From a virus (Duplodnaviria; Heunggongvirae; Uroviricota; Caudoviricetes): 64,000 nt of DNA. This document shows positions 12,087 to 39,295 of the stretch, in pieces. Below the pieces are notes generated by a model, which was not told the DNA's origin, made no database searches, and saw only the letters and a list, made by a program, of their open reading frames with translations. Positions within the stretch are counted from its first letter, which is position 1; each line of letters starts with the position of its first letter. The translations under genes were made by a program, and so were the position numbers. The stretch lies in IMG/VR virus record IMGVR_UViG_3300043427_004512, one strand, 5' to 3'.

Positions 12087-12287
12087 GTAAAAAACATTTT
12101 TTGGTTATATCATAAATACATTATACCTTTGCTTTGTCTGAATATAAGTAGGACGGGCTGGAGTGAACCTCTTGGAGCTGAATCAAAGGCAGGTTGCTTA
12201 ATAATAATATTAAGGTCAAGTTTTCCGTTCGAAAAACTTGACCTTAATATGTGGATAAGTTTATTTGGCAGTTTGGGAAATATTTCG

Positions 12288-12295
12288 TATCTTTG
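12288..12295 (+). promoter_or_regulatory. Bacteroidetes-type -7 box TATCTTTG
   Basis: matches the TAnnTTTG consensus; duplicated at 12348. Confidence 0.35.
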
Positions 12296-12347
12296 TAGGT
12301 TATTCCCCCCTATATAAAATTCTTTTGGCCATGTCAGAAAATAGTCG

Positions 12348-12355
12348 TACCTTTG
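12348..12355 (+). promoter_or_regulatory. Bacteroidetes-type -7 box TACCTTTG next to the start of 12360..12767
   Basis: tcgtaCctttgtag repeats tcgtaTctttgtag at 12283. Confidence 0.35.
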
Positions 12356-12359
12356 TAGT

Positions 12360-12767
12360 ATGAAAATGACAAAGAACATACTATTAAAGACTGACACTCG
12401 GGACCTTAGTCAAACCAAGGTTAAGGAGATTGCCAAGCTTACCATCATGTATGGTGTTGGGAAGTTTGGGGTCCATAACTATAAGAAGGTCCCCACCGTT
12501 TCAGTTGTCAATAACCCTGACGATAAGTTCTATGGTATGTTTGACTGTGGGACCAATAAGATAGTTGTCAATAGAGCTTATGCTGTCAATGTTAAATTGT
12601 TGGTCCAAACTATTCTCCATGAATATACCCACTACCTTCAGAACATGAGCAAGTATATACAACTCTATAAGAAGGTTGGGTATGACAACCACCCCTACGA
12701 AGTGGAAGCAAGAAACAGTGAGAAGTTATATTCAGAAGCGTTCAAACAAATAAAACAATTGATATGA
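12360..12767 (+). CDS. HExxH metallopeptidase-like protein (LHEYTHYL)
   Basis: HExxH motif; 135 aa. Confidence 0.45.
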   Translation: MKMTKNILLKTDTRDLSQTKVKEIAKLTIMYGVGKFGVHNYKKVPTVSVVNNPDDKFYGMFDCGTNKIVVNRAYAVNVKLLVQTILHEYTHYLQNMSKYIQLYKKVGYDNHPYEVEARNSEKLYSEAFKQIKQLI

Positions 12768-33677: not shown

Positions 33678-34598
33678 TTATAAACTACTTTCGAATATTT
33701 CTTTGGCCTTTGGATTAATGTCTAGTAATACGTAATTTCTACCCAAATTAATACAAGCCCTTCCTGTTGTTCCTGAACCTGCAAATGGGTCTAACACACT
33801 ATCCCCGATGTCACTATACATTTTAACCAATCTTTCAAGGAGTTCAACTGGTTTCTGAGTTGCATAATTTAATTTTTCACTTCCCTGTATTTGATTAATA
33901 TCGACCCATAAGTCACGAACAGGTATTCCTTCCATTTCACTTAAATATTTTTTGACTCGGGGAATTCCTTTTGAATTATACTCTAACCTATCCTCGTTAT
34001 GAAGTTGTTTCATTTTTTCTAAAGACCACCACCACTGCATGTGATGACCATTCCACTCATACCTGAGATTAGGTCTTTGAATTACGTCAGGTTGGCTATT
34101 ATGTGCCGCACTAGTTGTATACTCCCCTCTTAAATCTTTTTTGATTGTATTTGATTTCTTATATTCTTCATTGTATGGAATATAAATTGGATTATATTTG
34201 AATGTTTTCGATTTAGAATATACGATTAAAACGTCATGAAATCTCATGAGTTTTTTGGAACTTTTTTTATTTCCTCCACTTTTCCAAACAATTTCGTTTT
34301 GGAAGTTTTTTATTCCGAAAACATCGTCTAAAACCAGTCTTACATAATGTGAGATTTTAGGTTCGACATGAACTACAATAATCCCATCATTTTCCAACAA
34401 ATCTTTCATTATTTCCAACCTTGGCTTCAAAAACTCATACGCATAGTTTTGTATTGTTTCAAATTTATCATCAAAATCAAAAAAGTCTCTACCAGTATTG
34501 TATGGCGGGTCGAGATATATAAATCTGAATTTGTAATTTTCACTTCTGAGTCTTGACAGTTGTTCGAGATTTTCTCCGAGAAAAAAGTTATTGTACAT
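33678..34598 (-). CDS. DNA methyltransferase, beta-class N6A/N4C (DPPY then FAGSGTT)
   Basis: IYLDPPYNTGRDF (motif IV) precedes LDPFAGSGTTGRA (motif I). Confidence 0.7.
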   Translation of the reverse strand: MYNNFFLGENLEQLSRLRSENYKFRFIYLDPPYNTGRDFFDFDDKFETIQNYAYEFLKPRLEIMKDLLENDGIIVVHVEPKISHYVRLVLDDVFGIKNFQNEIVWKSGGNKKSSKKLMRFHDVLIVYSKSKTFKYNPIYIPYNEEYKKSNTIKKDLRGEYTTSAAHNSQPDVIQRPNLRYEWNGHHMQWWWSLEKMKQLHNEDRLEYNSKGIPRVKKYLSEMEGIPVRDLWVDINQIQGSEKLNYATQKPVELLERLVKMYSDIGDSVLDPFAGSGTTGRACINLGRNYVLLDINPKAKEIFESSL

Positions 34599-35208
34599 GG
34601 TTCGATAAATTTATAAGTTTAGTTGTTAACATATAAATATTATCGTATGAATTTTCTAAAAGTAAAGCTGATGGTACATGTGGCAAACAATATCCACGAT
34701 TGTTAACATCTTCTAACTCCTCAGATTTTATTAAAGAATAGGACCAATCTTTATATTTTTTTCTTAATCCCTCTTCTATGTGACAAATCACGATAAGAAC
34801 ATAATCAAACTCATTTATACTATATCTAACATGACCTGTATTTGAAGAACTATTTTGATTTTTTTCAGATAAACGTCTAGTATTTTCAAAATGAATTTGT
34901 TTACTATATGGTGTTTTACCATTTACTTGACGAAATTTAATCTGAATTTTTTTCTTTACTGGTAAAAGTAGTCGGTCAAATCCAGGACCATTATTGGAAT
35001 ACTTGAATTCTTCCACTAAATTGGGGTTTTTGTCCAAATTAAACAAGATTTGTTTATCGGCAATTTCATTGACCTTATAATGAATATATTCCTCTACAGC
35101 ACTCTGTATTGCCTTTCCGAAGTCTATAGGTTTTAAATTTTGTATGAAAGGGTTTTCCAGTGCAGAAATAACATCTTCAAAAGAATAGTCAACATTTCTA
35201 ATCTCCAT
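34588..35208 (-). CDS. hypothetical protein adjacent to the MTase (restriction endonuclease candidate)
   Basis: overlaps the MTase by 11 nt on the same strand; no confident PD-(D/E)xK assignment. Confidence 0.3.
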   Translation of the reverse strand: MEIRNVDYSFEDVISALENPFIQNLKPIDFGKAIQSAVEEYIHYKVNEIADKQILFNLDKNPNLVEEFKYSNNGPGFDRLLLPVKKKIQIKFRQVNGKTPYSKQIHFENTRRLSEKNQNSSSNTGHVRYSINEFDYVLIVICHIEEGLRKKYKDWSYSLIKSEELEDVNNRGYCLPHVPSALLLENSYDNIYMLTTKLINLSNHVQ

Positions 35209-35250
35209 GTATTTTTTTAAAAAAAATAATAAAATAAACTCAAAAAACAA

Positions 35251-36257
35251 AAAACCCCATTTGTAGAAACAAACGGGGTCAATTAGTTAAAAAAACTTTG
35301 AGAATACAAGTTCTATTTGAGAATCTTTAGAAGGATTATTGTTTCCCTTCGTTTCCACTTCCTTTTGAGAAGTAATCCTCAGTGACGATTAATTAGGTTA
35401 ATCAAACCTTGAGTTGTCAGATACTCTCTTGATACTTGCTACTCCTCGATGATGCCTCACCGATACTTCCTTGCGAGAATAGAGAACTTTTTCAAAAATC
35501 GTGTCGGGCTTGGGACCCTTCACGTCCGTGAACATCTCACGAATATGTAGTCACCTTTCACTGACAACTGACGGACACTTTTCCGTTTGTAATTATTATT
35601 GTTAATAACATTTAACAAATGAATTGGTTGTGGATTTGGAAAGTAGCGGTCCGTCAACCTGCTTCCCCATCTTTTGAACGAGGAAATACTGAACTACTCT
35701 CTGAAACATCCCTGTCTCCATACTTTAAGTCTACTTCATAACTCATGCCTTGGTAGGCTAAGGTTAAGGAGAACAACAGCACCACCTGTACGAACTCATA
35801 CCTTTCGGTTTTAAGTCAACTCTGATATTGAATCACGCAATTGTATAGTTGGATGACCATACTTCTTGCAAGAGTTCTACGGGTTATTCTTATTGGTGTT
35901 CCCACCTCAACCAAACGACCCACATCGCTTGGTCATCATTCCATTTCGCCTACAGTGTCACCCTCAGCTACTCAGGAACAATGATGTCCCGCTTGTCTAC
36001 TCGAGCTCAACAGGGGACACCCCTATCGAGCCGCAACCTACTTCAACCGAGGTAGGTCACTTTATACTGCTTTCACAGTTTATTTTATGGACTATAGACC
36101 GCCCAATATCTTAAATCAAAGAACTATCAAGTTTGAAGGAAAAAGGTATTTTTACGACCTGAAACCTTTCAGGGACCTTTACAACCCGTTTCCTTCAATT
36201 GTTCTACAAAATTAAGAAAGGTTTTTCATACTTCCAAATTTTTTAGAACTTTTTTTG
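35251..36257. other. about 1 kb ORF-free, GC-elevated region 3' of the tRNA (candidate structured ncRNA or gene remnant)
   Basis: no ORF over 80 aa in any frame; local hairpins such as CCTGAAAccTTTCAGG nested inside GAAGGAAA...TTTCCTTC. Confidence 0.4.
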
Positions 36258-36330
36258 TTGCGTGAGTAAGAATCGAACTTACGACCTAAAGGTTATGAGC
36301 CTTCCGAGCTACCGCTGCTCTATCACGCGA
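36258..36330 (-). tRNA. tRNA-Met (CAT), initiator-like
   Basis: minus-strand sequence CGCGTGATAGAGCAGCGGTAGCTCGGAAGGCTCATAACCTTTAGGTCGTAAGTTCGATTCTTACTCACGCAA has a cloverleaf; C1:A72 mismatch; close similarity to bacterial tRNA-fMet; CCA not encoded. Confidence 0.75.
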
Positions 36331-36646
36331 TGTAAAATTAAATTCTACCCATTCCCCGTCGTCACCATCCAAGTCATGCTCTGGTTGTACATGGGTAGAA
36401 TCAATATGTTAAAGAACTTTATTCGATTAAAAAGTCCCACAAATCTACGATACTTTTCTCAAACTACCAAATTCGTGGGACTAAGGGGTGAGATGTTTGA
36501 CCATCTCATTTGTTTCACAAAGTTAAGAAGAATTTCTCAATTCGTCAAATTTTTCTTGTAAAACTTTTTTTGTGGGGTGTCCACCTTTTTACAGGTGTGG
36601 ATTAATAAATATAATAAAAAAATTGAAAAGTCAACTATTTGTTGAA

Positions 36647-36880
36647 TTATGCTGTCAAGTTCAAGATAGTTTTACTAGTATATAAATCAATAACAGCATT
36701 AGTCCATCCTACAGATTTATAGATATTTTCTACCTCTGTCGCAACTGATTGATTCATTGGATAAATAATGAGAATACTATATTGGTCCAATCCTAAAGAC
36801 ATAGTTCCTAAAACTCTATCGAAGGCATCCACATATTCATTAGCAGATACTGGATTCATTTGTGTGGGTGTGAGCGCCAT
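36647..36880 (-). CDS. hypothetical protein
   Basis: 77 aa ORF. Confidence 0.35.
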   Translation of the reverse strand: MALTPTQMNPVSANEYVDAFDRVLGTMSLGLDQYSILIIYPMNQSVATEVENIYKSVGWTNAVIDLYTSKTILNLTA

Positions 36881-37299
36881 TAGTTAAGAATTGTTTCAAG
36901 AAGTTTATATAAATAAGTACCAGTTTTTCCTATTTCTATTTGTGGTAAAGTAAAATATTTCCAGTCAGAATGTTCATCTCCATCAATTGCATTTTCAAAA
37001 TCAGGTTCCAACTCTTTATCACATTCATGAAGATAAACGTACATAAGACCTTTAACTTTTTTTCCATCACGAGTATGCCTTGGGACTAATCCAACAAATT
37101 TTAATTCGACATCAGACAAATCTATATTTGTTTCTTCGAAGAATTCTCTTTTTGCACCCTCAATTGTAGATTCCTCGTCTTCCAACTTTCCGGCGGGTAT
37201 TGACCACATTCCGGGAAAACTTCCTTCATGATTTCTTTTACATAGTAAAACCTTATTATTACATTTTACTGCTACTCCAACATATCTTTTCTTTTCCAT
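36880..37299 (-). CDS. Nudix hydrolase
   Basis: Nudix box GKLEDEESTIEGAKREFFEETNI. Confidence 0.8.
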   Translation of the reverse strand: MEKKRYVGVAVKCNNKVLLCKRNHEGSFPGMWSIPAGKLEDEESTIEGAKREFFEETNIDLSDVELKFVGLVPRHTRDGKKVKGLMYVYLHECDKELEPDFENAIDGDEHSDWKYFTLPQIEIGKTGTYLYKLLETILN

Positions 37300-37313: not shown

Positions 37314-37676
37314 ATGTTGATAAAAATTAATCAAAAAGAATTTCAAGTCAAAGTTTTAGTTGATAAAAAGTCTCAAGAAATCGGTATGAAAAAAAATAAA
37401 TTTTCTTCACCGAACGAAGGATTACTTTTTTTAATGGGTGGAAACCGTCAGTGTTTTTGGATGAAAGATTGTATAGTTCCGTTAGATATTATAATAATTG
37501 AAAATAATACTATAAAGAAAATACATCACAATTGTCCTCCTTGTGATAATGAAAATTGTCAATCATATTGTGGTAATGGAAATATAGTTTTGGAACTAAT
37601 GGGAAATTCCTGTAAAAAACACAATATAGAAGAAGGGGATTCTGTGGAATATGTTTTAAAATCAAAAAAGTCCTAA
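37314..37676 (+). CDS. DUF192-like protein
   Basis: LDIIIIENNTIKKIH...NIVLELMGNSCKK resembles COG1430/DUF192; start moved to the ATG at 37314. Confidence 0.45.
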   Translation: MLIKINQKEFQVKVLVDKKSQEIGMKKNKFSSPNEGLLFLMGGNRQCFWMKDCIVPLDIIIIENNTIKKIHHNCPPCDNENCQSYCGNGNIVLELMGNSCKKHNIEEGDSVEYVLKSKKS

Positions 37677-38012
37677 AAATTTACTTTCAAACTTATCAAG
37701 ACCGTCTTCTCTCATTTTAGTAAACGTTTCACGCCCTAAAATACCATCAGGATATATTCTTTTTTCTGATTGATATTTTTTAATTGCCGCCTCAGTTTTA
37801 GAGTTAGGTCCGGTCTTTCCATCAACTTTTAATGGAACGAATGTTTTGTCTTTCTTATATCTGTTGTTTAAAAATTTTTGAACCGAAGTGACTGTTTCAT
37901 ATTCTTCTTCGTCGTGTTGTTCTGTAATCACTCTCTTAATAATCATTCTCAAATCAGACTCTGTAAGTCTTATAACTTTCGGTTCCACTGAAAATTTATC
38001 TTTATTTTTCAT
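37662..38012 (-). CDS. leader-A protein (..KVIRLTESDLRMIIKRVITEQ) with C-terminal peptidoglycan-binding domain
   Basis: AIKKYQSEKRIYPDGILGRETFTKM is a PG_binding_1 motif; 12-aa N-extension before the leader; possible GTG start. Confidence 0.55.
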   Translation of the reverse strand: MKNKDKFSVEPKVIRLTESDLRMIIKRVITEQHDEEEYETVTSVQKFLNNRYKKDKTFVPLKVDGKTGPNSKTEAAIKKYQSEKRIYPDGILGRETFTKMREDGLDKFESKFLGLF

Positions 38013-38013
38013 T

Positions 38014-38385
38014 TTAGTATTTTAATGTCAATAAGTATTTTGATTTATTTATCAGACCTAACATTTCATCTCTAAGGTTAAGTAAATCGGTGTCGTATCT
38101 AGAATCTAAATGGTCAGATAATCCTACCAAGAATTCAGTGATTCCATCCATAAAGTTTTGCATTGTCAGGTTTTTGATGTCTTGAAACATCATACCAAAT
38201 TCTGCTTGAAACTCAGGTCTACCTTGTTTTCCCATCATGGTCTCTGTAAATTCATCGATAAGGTCACCTAATTTATCGTATATATCTCCATACAATCTAT
38301 GTTTAGAATCTCCTGTAGTTTGCCAATGTAAAAATTTAAATTGTGTTTGTATTTGGACCAACTTTATAATAATTTCCTCTTTCAT
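38014..38385 (-). CDS. hypothetical protein
   Basis: start moved to the Met downstream of the terminator hairpin. Confidence 0.4.
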   Translation of the reverse strand: MKEEIIIKLVQIQTQFKFLHWQTTGDSKHRLYGDIYDKLGDLIDEFTETMMGKQGRPEFQAEFGMMFQDIKNLTMQNFMDGITEFLVGLSDHLDSRYDTDLLNLRDEMLGLINKSKYLLTLKY

Positions 38386-38420
38386 TAGAAAAACATTTAT
38401 TATAAATACTACAGTAATAA

Positions 38421-38445
38421 AAAAAGGGTCAGAGACCCTTTTCAA
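38421..38445 (-). terminator. hairpin AAGGGTC-aga-GACCCTT with T7 on the minus strand, overlapping the MTase stop codon
   Basis: read from the sequence. Confidence 0.5.
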
Positions 38446-39295
38446 ATTCTAATTTTGTTTGTTTCATTTTATCCTCAAAGGATTTAACCCTTTTGTTTGC
38501 AACCTTTAAATATTCTTCACTCAATTCTATTCCAATCCATCTTCTATCATTAATTACCGCACTCACCAAACTAGTTCCGCTACCAGCGAAAGGGTCAAGA
38601 ACAATATCGTTTTTATATGTGAGTATTTTGATTGCTTTATTAGGTATATCCATAGAAAAAGTTGCTTTAGTCAAAGATTTAGTATCTGCAAAATATTCCC
38701 ATTGACCGAAAACTAAATCCATAAATTCTTTTTTCTGTTCTTCAGTATAAATTATTTTTTTCTTCGATACTCCTTCTTCATTTTCTACCATAGTTTCAAC
38801 ACCAACCCACTCTGGCTCACCTTTTATCTTCTTAATGTGGAATTTTTTATAAGCAAGTATTATACATTCTTTGGGGTTATAAATGTATGGTGAGGATGGC
38901 GACATCCAAGAACCCCAAGCAGTGGTCTTACTCCTATGTGGGGAATTCTCTTCCAAATCTACCACACCAAAAAATTTGAATCCTACCTCTTGCATTATTT
39001 TCCATAATTCAGCAACCATGAAAATTCTTCCTCCCTTAGCCTGTCTGTTAATTTCATATGGAATGTTTATTGCAATTCTTCCATCATCTTTTAATACTCT
39101 GAATGCCTGCTCAATCCACTCTTTGGAAAATTTCTTATACTCCTCGAAATGAACATCATCATCATGAACATCATAGTCAATTCCAACACCATAAGGAGGG
39201 GAGGTGACGATTAAGTCAACTGAATTTTCAGGTATTTCGGACATGACCTGTCTACAATCACCCAAGTGAATTTTGTTTATATAATTTTCAATCAT
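38429..39295 (-). CDS. DNA methyltransferase, beta-class N4C/N6A (SPPY then FAGSGTS)
   Basis: DLIVTSPPYGVGIDYD then LDPFAGSGTSLVSAV. Confidence 0.7.
   Translation of the reverse strand: MIENYINKIHLGDCRQVMSEIPENSVDLIVTSPPYGVGIDYDVHDDDVHFEEYKKFSKEWIEQAFRVLKDDGRIAINIPYEINRQAKGGRIFMVAELWKIMQEVGFKFFGVVDLEENSPHRSKTTAWGSWMSPSSPYIYNPKECIILAYKKFHIKKIKGEPEWVGVETMVENEEGVSKKKIIYTEEQKKEFMDLVFGQWEYFADTKSLTKATFSMDIPNKAIKILTYKNDIVLDPFAGSGTSLVSAVINDRRWIGIELSEEYLKVANKRVKSFEDKMKQTKLEFEKGL

Follow-up and report, generated by a model that had tools for sequence, protein, structure and literature searches.

The IMG/VR virus record IMGVR_UViG_3300043427_004512 (Caudoviricetes) comprises 64,000 nucleotides (nt), all of which were analysed here and are referred to as the window. 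Its interval at 35251-36646 holds two minus-strand RNA genes, an initiator-like methionine transfer RNA (tRNA-Met) and, downstream of it, a GOLLD RNA of ~810 nt, between two minus-strand protein-coding genes at 34588-35208 and 36647-36880. Neither flanking open reading frame (ORF) has a Pfam or PHROG match or a counterpart in relatives. A preliminary description of this DNA had reported no credible ORF and a raised G+C content between these genes, and both observations hold. The longest ORFs within the interval encode 99 amino acids (36262-36561, plus strand, GTG start, antisense to the tRNA) and 82 amino acids (35866-36114, plus strand, TTG start, antisense to GOLLD), and G+C content is 0.38-0.447 over 35250-36600 versus 0.27-0.33 in the flanks on both sides. 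ARAGORN and Infernal searches against Rfam, which that description had suggested, were run and gave tRNA-Met(CAT) and GOLLD. At curated thresholds, these were the two Rfam matches in the entire window, GOLLD being assigned to RF02032.

The GOLLD match lies at 35295-35701 on the minus strand, scores 317.3 bits (gathering threshold, 150; E value, 5e-90) and covers positions 1-416 of the 416-position model. All helices are filled in the cmscan alignment of this 3' domain, only four non-standard pairs are flagged and both pseudoknot strands are aligned. The RF02032 model spans only the conserved 3' half of GOLLD, and the 5' half was located via the env-38 sequence (Supplementary Table 4 of Kretsch et al. 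2025, PMC12286853), which was taken from a machine-read PDF that yielded 815 of 833 nt and whose residue numbering relative to the structure is approximate. Pairwise MAFFT alignment of the minus strand with env-38 is colinear from 36104 to ~35300, with identity at 501 of 787 aligned positions (~64%). GOLLD therefore totals ~810 nt (36104-35295, minus strand), with both domains present in a phage context beside a tRNA. Its 5' domain is of the env-38 type, starts with GGGCGGUCUAUAGUCC, occupies 35702-36104 (~403 nt, minus strand) and aligns to env-38 residues 1 to ~415; the 3' domain, the universally conserved half, aligns to residues ~416-810. The 5' domain includes a 21-nt motif, CAAUAAGAAUAACCCGUAGAA (DNA CAATAAGAATAACNCNTAGAA; 35895-35875, minus strand), and a short CC-GAAA-GG hairpin of the P11a type (35809-35800, minus strand). 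An A/U-rich single-stranded linker in the 3' domain (~35640-35575, minus strand) matches the disordered, inward-facing linker of env-38; the first part of the window linker (35640-35620), rich in C and poor in G, is a candidate Rho loading site. At 35253-35280, 15 nt past the GOLLD 3' end, a terminator scan identified an intrinsic terminator hairpin of 12 pairs on the same strand, followed by a U-run. The preliminary description had proposed structured RNA in the ~1 kb downstream of the tRNA; the Rfam match, the env-38 alignment and covariation establish this region as a full-length GOLLD RNA, which belongs to a known family and is no new type of element. Beyond GOLLD and the tRNA, permissive scanning of 35200-36700 with Rfam gave sub-threshold chance matches only, and it named nothing for the leader at 36330-36646 or the spacer at 36105-36257.

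Relatives were collected as IMG/VR viral contigs carrying the 21-nt 5'-domain motif, of which there are at least 120. The closest of those among the matches listed are 77-79% identical to the window across the whole RNA. In 12 of 12 relatives checked, including a 635-kb uncultured GenBank phage, a GOLLD 3' domain scoring 270-338 bits directly follows the shared 5' domain. The 5' domain was aligned for the window and 50 relatives, which share <93% identity among themselves and 60-80% with the window (51 sequences). RNAalifold recovered 109 pairs in 21 helices from this alignment, 76 of them with compensatory double changes. In an independent count, 98.0% of cells formed standard pairs, versus 36-45% when partners were slid by 1-3 columns; pairs with double changes numbered 76 versus 27-37 in the slid controls, and the covariation score was 0.57 versus 0.07-0.10. 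None of 500 shuffles reached any of the observed measures. The GOLLD gene is under strong structural selection. The two other origins that the preliminary description had entertained, a decayed protein-coding gene and a degenerate tRNA array, would suit an ORF-free region inside a densely coding genome and the long tRNA arrays found at the same place in related phages, but both are excluded, with a probability close to nil, because variation among the 51 sequences tracks base-pairing rather than codons (76 pairs with compensatory double changes), because coding signal is absent, the stop-free stretches of homologous segments being no longer than those of shuffled sequence (longest per segment, median 86 versus 74.5 amino acids; 94 segments), and because the permissive scan of 35200-36700 contains no second tRNA-like match; the 317-bit match to the GOLLD model also speaks against them.

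ARAGORN places the tRNA gene at 36257-36329 on the minus strand (annotated here as 36258-36329), 153 nt upstream of GOLLD (Rfam tRNA, 63.5 bits), and detects no other tRNA across the 64 kb. ARAGORN, Rfam and direct reading of the sequence all agree with the earlier account of a lone minus-strand tRNA with anticodon CAT (CAU in the RNA) and a C1:A72 mismatch. Its reported likeness to tRNA-fMet is borne out by C1xA72, which is not a Watson-Crick pair, and by A11:U24, but not by the full anticodon stem, where only two of the three canonical G:C pairs (G30:C40 and G31:C39) are present. The discriminator is A73, and the tRNA is followed by CAA, CCA not being encoded. We describe this tRNA as initiator-like, not as a proven initiator, because A29:U41 replaces the third G:C pair and CCA is not encoded. 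Initiators with an AU/GC/GC stem exist in nature and can sustain Escherichia coli.

The same type of tRNA recurs beside GOLLD in the relatives, in which tRNAs were identified with ARAGORN at the 115 listed loci whose upstream sequence extends for 700 nt or more. A same-strand tRNA-Met(CAT) occurs within 900 nt upstream of the 5'-domain motif at 88 of these 115 loci, and any same-strand tRNA at 96. Among the matches listed, position 1:72 is mismatched or weak in 86 of 90 upstream CAU tRNAs (CxA in 61, CxU in 18, U:A in 4 and A:U in 3), so this feature is under selection; the AU/GC/GC anticodon stem is found in 69 of the 90 and GC/GC/GC in only 8. The automatic count of A11:U24 was off register in 46 homologues with a D arm one base longer. 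That the window gene instead encodes an elongator tRNA-Met or, with lysidine formed at C34, a tRNA-Ile2 is improbable: the A29:U41 pair leaves two of the three typical G:C pairs, and 4 of the 90 listed upstream CAU tRNAs carry G1:C72 and look like elongator or Ile2 species, but C1xA72, A11:U24, A73 and G30:C40/G31:C39 are all present in the window, and the 1:72 pattern holds in 86 of 90 listed homologues. The initiator-like tRNA looks like the conserved core partner of GOLLD. The published record already places env-38 downstream of a Met-tRNA (PMC12286853) and GOLLD often near tRNAs (PMC12286853, PMC5737381).

Predicted transcription signals surround both RNA genes. The Bacteroidota promoter consensus consists of TTTG at -33 and TAnnTTTG at -7. 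This motif has 14 matches in the window versus 2.9 expected, a number that 0 of 100 shuffles reached, and three of the 14 sites fall inside the interval, all on the minus strand. Two of these promoter-like motifs lie upstream of the tRNA: PA1 (36518-36549; TTTG-N20-TAACTTTG), which relatives conserve as part of a ~60-nt block, and PA2 (36471-36440). The third, PB (36207-36238; TTTG-N20-TAATTTTG), is of the Bacteroidota -33/-7 type and lies between the tRNA and GOLLD. In the listed relatives, the motif is common upstream of GOLLD on the sense strand, and neither GOLLD itself nor the antisense strand has it. The -7 box TA(C/T)CTTTGC is an enriched 9-mer in the regions upstream of Bacteroidota 16S ribosomal RNA (rRNA) genes. 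GOLLD probably has its own promoter, and read-through from the tRNA is also possible because no terminator separates the two genes.

Several hairpins accompany these signals on the minus strand. A leader hairpin at 36135-36196, between PB and the second boxA-like element described below and hence in the position of a boxB, has the stem GAAGGAAA/UUUCCUUC, a fold energy of -25.4 kcal/mol (z -3.0), conserved internal loops GUAAAG and CGUAAA, and compensatory stem changes in relatives L102, L020, L045 and L067. Another hairpin at 36580-36601, past the stop codon of the small upstream ORF (36647-36880), resembles hairpins that precede the promoter in L020, L003 and L057. Both had been noticed in the preliminary description and do exist, but a few bases away from where they were placed: the arms of the first are at 36196-36189 and 36142-36135 rather than spanning 36132-36200, and those of the second at 36601-36594 and 36585-36580 rather than within 36583-36606. 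A further hairpin follows PA1 (36507-36490), and a 7-bp inverted repeat, GUCCCAC/GUGGGAC (36434-36481), encloses PA2, a design shared with L117, L108 and L038; this repeat could act as an operator or, in RNA started at the first promoter, fold into a boxB-like hairpin. Sequence and fold also indicate a 54-nt hairpin, CUACCCAU...AUGGGUAG, at 36345-36398 between the first boxA-like element and the tRNA. This hairpin, whose conserved core is GUACAACCAG...GCAUGAC...GGUGAC...GGGGAA, occurs among the matches listed only in the window and in three close relatives, L102, L062 and L020, and has no Rfam match.

Each RNA gene is preceded by a conserved boxA-like element, aAaGTTCTT(T/A)(A/G/T)A (short form GTTCTTT(A/G)A). 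Element 1, GUUCUUUAA (DNA GTTCTTTAA), lies upstream of the tRNA at 36409-36417 (minus strand) and is followed by CAUAUUG; element 2, GUUCUUUGA (DNA GTTCTTTGA), lies at 36116-36124 (minus strand), 12 nt upstream of the GOLLD 5' end, and is followed by UUUAAGAUAUUGG. Their positions fit the predicted promoters, each element being downstream of a promoter motif and upstream of an untranslated RNA. Of the 115 relatives listed, 107 carry the motif no more than ~115 nt before GOLLD, and 46 of 84 carry it at a distance of 10-30 nt before the initiator-like tRNA; the antisense strand of these upstream regions has no copy. In L020, L062, L117, L038, L003 and L057, an extra module of ~60 nt, ...GUUGAUGAUGAGACC-UUCG-GGUUGAUUCUGAGA..., separates the boxA-like motif from the 5' end of GOLLD; its UGAUGA/CUGA pairing is kink-turn-like and duplicated AAGAUAUU sequences flank it. 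The window has no such module.

The likeness to rRNA operons extends to sequence and position. The E. coli rrn boxA is UGCUCUUUA and its spacer ACAAUUUA, boxA and spacer together reading UGCUCUUUAACAAUUUA (PMC2724277); the window element agrees with this boxA at 7 of 9 positions, and element 1 with its spacer at 12 of 17. Bacteroidota were represented by 120 genome loci through the 16S 5' end, 100 of them with at least 350 nt upstream. Sense-strand copies of the motif are found in 49 of these 100 16S leaders and an antisense-strand copy in 1, and GTTCTTTGA is the commonest 9-mer (42 of 100), the 16S end itself aside. Along Bacteroidota rRNA operons, the motif is found only in the 16S leader and the 16S-23S spacer, with none inside 16S or 23S. 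The operons L122-L241 give (A)AGTTCTTTGAAnnATTG as a working Bacteroidota boxA consensus. A hairpin precedes each boxA-like element in the window, as boxB precedes boxA in rRNA leaders. Two other roles were considered for the motif and rejected: a phage-specific promoter, given no enrichment in the window (8 matches on both strands versus ~9 estimated by hand from base composition), and one half of a leader-trailer helix, as the 5' strand pairing with the GOLLD 3' end, whose sequence is not conserved in env-38.

boxA/Nus antitermination shields long non-coding RNAs, namely rRNA and clustered regularly interspaced short palindromic repeat (CRISPR) arrays, including those of Bacteroidetes, from Rho and aids their folding (PMC7665894). 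From sequence and position, we consider it fairly likely that Nus factors modify the RNA polymerase that transcribes the tRNA and GOLLD. Alternatively, the element could be a signal for RNA processing or protein binding at the 5' flank of each mature RNA, such as the site at which an endonuclease frees the tRNA and GOLLD from a common precursor, and its likeness to rRNA leaders would arise because the same enzyme processes pre-rRNA. Such a signal would be expected to keep a short, fixed distance from the mature RNA and not from the promoter, as the element does (10-30 nt from the tRNA and, in the window, 12 nt from GOLLD), and its lack of over-representation elsewhere in the window (the 8 matches versus ~9 estimated) also fits. 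Against this stand the 7-of-9 and 12-of-17 agreement with an experimentally defined E. coli boxA, the occurrence of the Bacteroidota motif at exactly the two canonical boxA positions, leader and 16S-23S spacer, and the boxB-like hairpin before the element in the window, and we regard a processing signal as unlikely. Of the papers listed in a full-text literature search, which most subscription-journal papers lay beyond, none pairs GOLLD with boxA or antitermination.

The genes around the locus are phage-like. Same-strand neighbours encode N6/N4 DNA methyltransferases (33678-34598 and 38429-39295), a NUDIX hydrolase (36880-37299), an endolysin-type peptidoglycan-binding protein (37662-38012) and a Dps-like DUF5856 protein (38014-38445), and family matches among the neighbouring genes also include a virion protein. 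In 26-29 related contigs, tRNA-GOLLD is likewise preceded by syntenic NUDIX, peptidoglycan-binding and Dps-like genes, whose amino acid identity reaches 69-85%. In the closest relatives among the matches listed, the NUDIX gene is directly upstream of the tRNA, with synteny in L107, L045, L062, L102, L020 and others. The two DNA methyltransferase genes (PF01555, E values 3e-44 and 4e-33) lie on either side of the RNA locus, within 5 kb. In many relatives GOLLD sits inside an array of 10-30 tRNAs, at times together with a transfer-messenger RNA (tmRNA) gene (Rfam, 79-89 bits; L033 6311-6704, L066 7779-8171 and L013 12201-12566); some of these contigs are 250-330 kb long. Megablast of window positions 20000-44000 against 50,697 phage records returned no match, so none of the cultured phages is a close relative; a blastn search of phages with the interval yielded tRNA genes and the GOLLD 5' domain of one 635-kb uncultured phage, and nothing else. 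The host is probably a member of the Bacteroidota. Elsewhere in the window, promoter motifs of the Bacteroidota type stand in tandem at 12100, 12264 and 12324 in a divergent intergenic region (12087-12359, plus strand). Downstream of the first lies a ~115-nt unit with a terminator-like hairpin at its end (12207-12250; 18 bp, fold z -3.0), which makes 12138-12255 (plus strand) a candidate small RNA. Only 4 nt separate the end of the third from the ATG at 12360, suggesting that the messenger RNA is leaderless or nearly so.

Knowledge of GOLLD dates from 2009 and that of its cage structure from 2025. The closest solved counterpart of the window RNA is env-38 (marine metagenome JCVI_SCAF_1096627009515; PDB 9MEE), with which it shares ~64% identity end to end, the order of 5' and 3' domains, an A/U-rich internal linker, a GAAA-capped 5'-domain hairpin and a place downstream of a tRNA-Met. 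env-38 forms a D7 14-mer nanocage that is 380 Å across and stable down to 12.5 nM (PMC12286853), and stoichiometry varies among GOLLD variants, with 10, 12 or 14 subunits (PMC12990946). The prophage GOLLDs of Lactobacillales and Mycobacterium (RF02032; the S. agalactiae dodecamer is PDB 9L0R) resemble the window RNA in the 3' domain and in a phage or prophage context beside tRNAs. They differ in their divergent or reduced 5' domains and, in some, a tRNA within the linker (PMC12990946, PMC6582537), whereas the window has no tRNA in the linker and a single accompanying tRNA. Expression of L. brevis GOLLD rises in lytic growth, as cited in PMC12286853. ROOL, the octameric nanocage RNA of phages and plasmids, is likewise large, ornate and phage-associated, occurs near tRNAs and assembles into a hollow homo-oligomeric cage, but its sequence and fold are unrelated, and Rfam scans of the window and interval gave no ROOL match. 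In its predicted transcription signals the locus resembles an rRNA operon leader: promoter-like motifs in tandem come first, then a hairpin and a boxA with the very sequence of the Bacteroidota 16S-leader motif, and finally a long structured untranslated RNA. The product differs, being rRNA in one case and a predicted phage RNA cage with a tRNA in the other, and no boxC is defined in the window.

Taken together, a locus of GOLLD and an initiator-type tRNA with predicted promoters, boxA and terminator, in a phage of a probable Bacteroidota host, is in our view very likely the correct explanation of the interval. Some points count against parts of it. In addition to the incompletely recovered env-38 text and the missing G29:C41 pair noted above, the promoters, transcript ends, processing and co-transcription at this locus are predictions, and the boxA motif is too invariant for covariation-type evidence and could be a processing or protein-binding site. 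The host assignment draws only on the promoter and boxA motifs and a weak tRNA similarity to Cellulophaga phages. Relative to env-38, the P11a-equivalent hairpin of the window is shorter and a hairpin near 36040-36000 is longer; because of these two differences, the subunit number of the window RNA cannot be predicted.

A scheme for the locus would run along the minus strand from two tandem host-type promoters through a boxA-like element, the initiator-type tRNA-Met, a third promoter, the leader hairpin and a second boxA-like element to the ~810-nt GOLLD, with its 5' 'cap' and 3' 'ring', and the intrinsic terminator. Both RNAs would be transcribed by host RNA polymerase modified by Nus factors, with NusB/S10 on boxA, and this modification would shield the long untranslated transcript from Rho and aid its folding during synthesis, as for rRNA and CRISPR arrays. 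The GOLLD transcript would then fold by itself and assemble into a closed homo-oligomeric nanocage with the A/U-rich linker facing inward; such assembly may be expected by homology to env-38, which is 64% identical and has been solved by cryogenic electron microscopy. Published ideas for the cage include the encapsulation of tRNAs, ribosomes or other cargo. That GOLLD is so persistently paired with an initiator tRNA, and in relatives also with arrays of tRNAs and a tmRNA, suggests that it has a part in how the phage handles translation; the initiator-tRNA linkage and the rRNA-like transcription signals are compatible with such a role without demonstrating one. We propose, tentatively and as a possibility that falls somewhat short of even, that GOLLD and the initiator-type tRNA constitute a conserved core of two genes in this large set of lake and marine phages, that this core is expressed in the manner of a miniature rRNA operon, that cage assembly depends on the Nus antitermination/RNA-chaperone complex, and that the cage acts in translation initiation or ribosome handling during infection.

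The window locus is a minimal version of this arrangement, with one initiator-type tRNA and GOLLD and no tRNA array. Beyond identification of the RNA, two results offer testable leads on GOLLD synthesis: its core pairing with an initiator tRNA, and the boxA of rRNA type in front of both genes. Two regularities in the relatives could make GOLLD function itself testable: of all tRNAs, an initiator-like tRNA-Met is the one tied most persistently to this type of GOLLD, and a boxA of the host's rRNA type accompanies both RNAs. If GOLLD does need the Nus complex, boxA mutants, Rho inhibition and NusB would provide a genetic handle on cage formation in cells, and a phage RNA would join the short list of Nus-factor targets.

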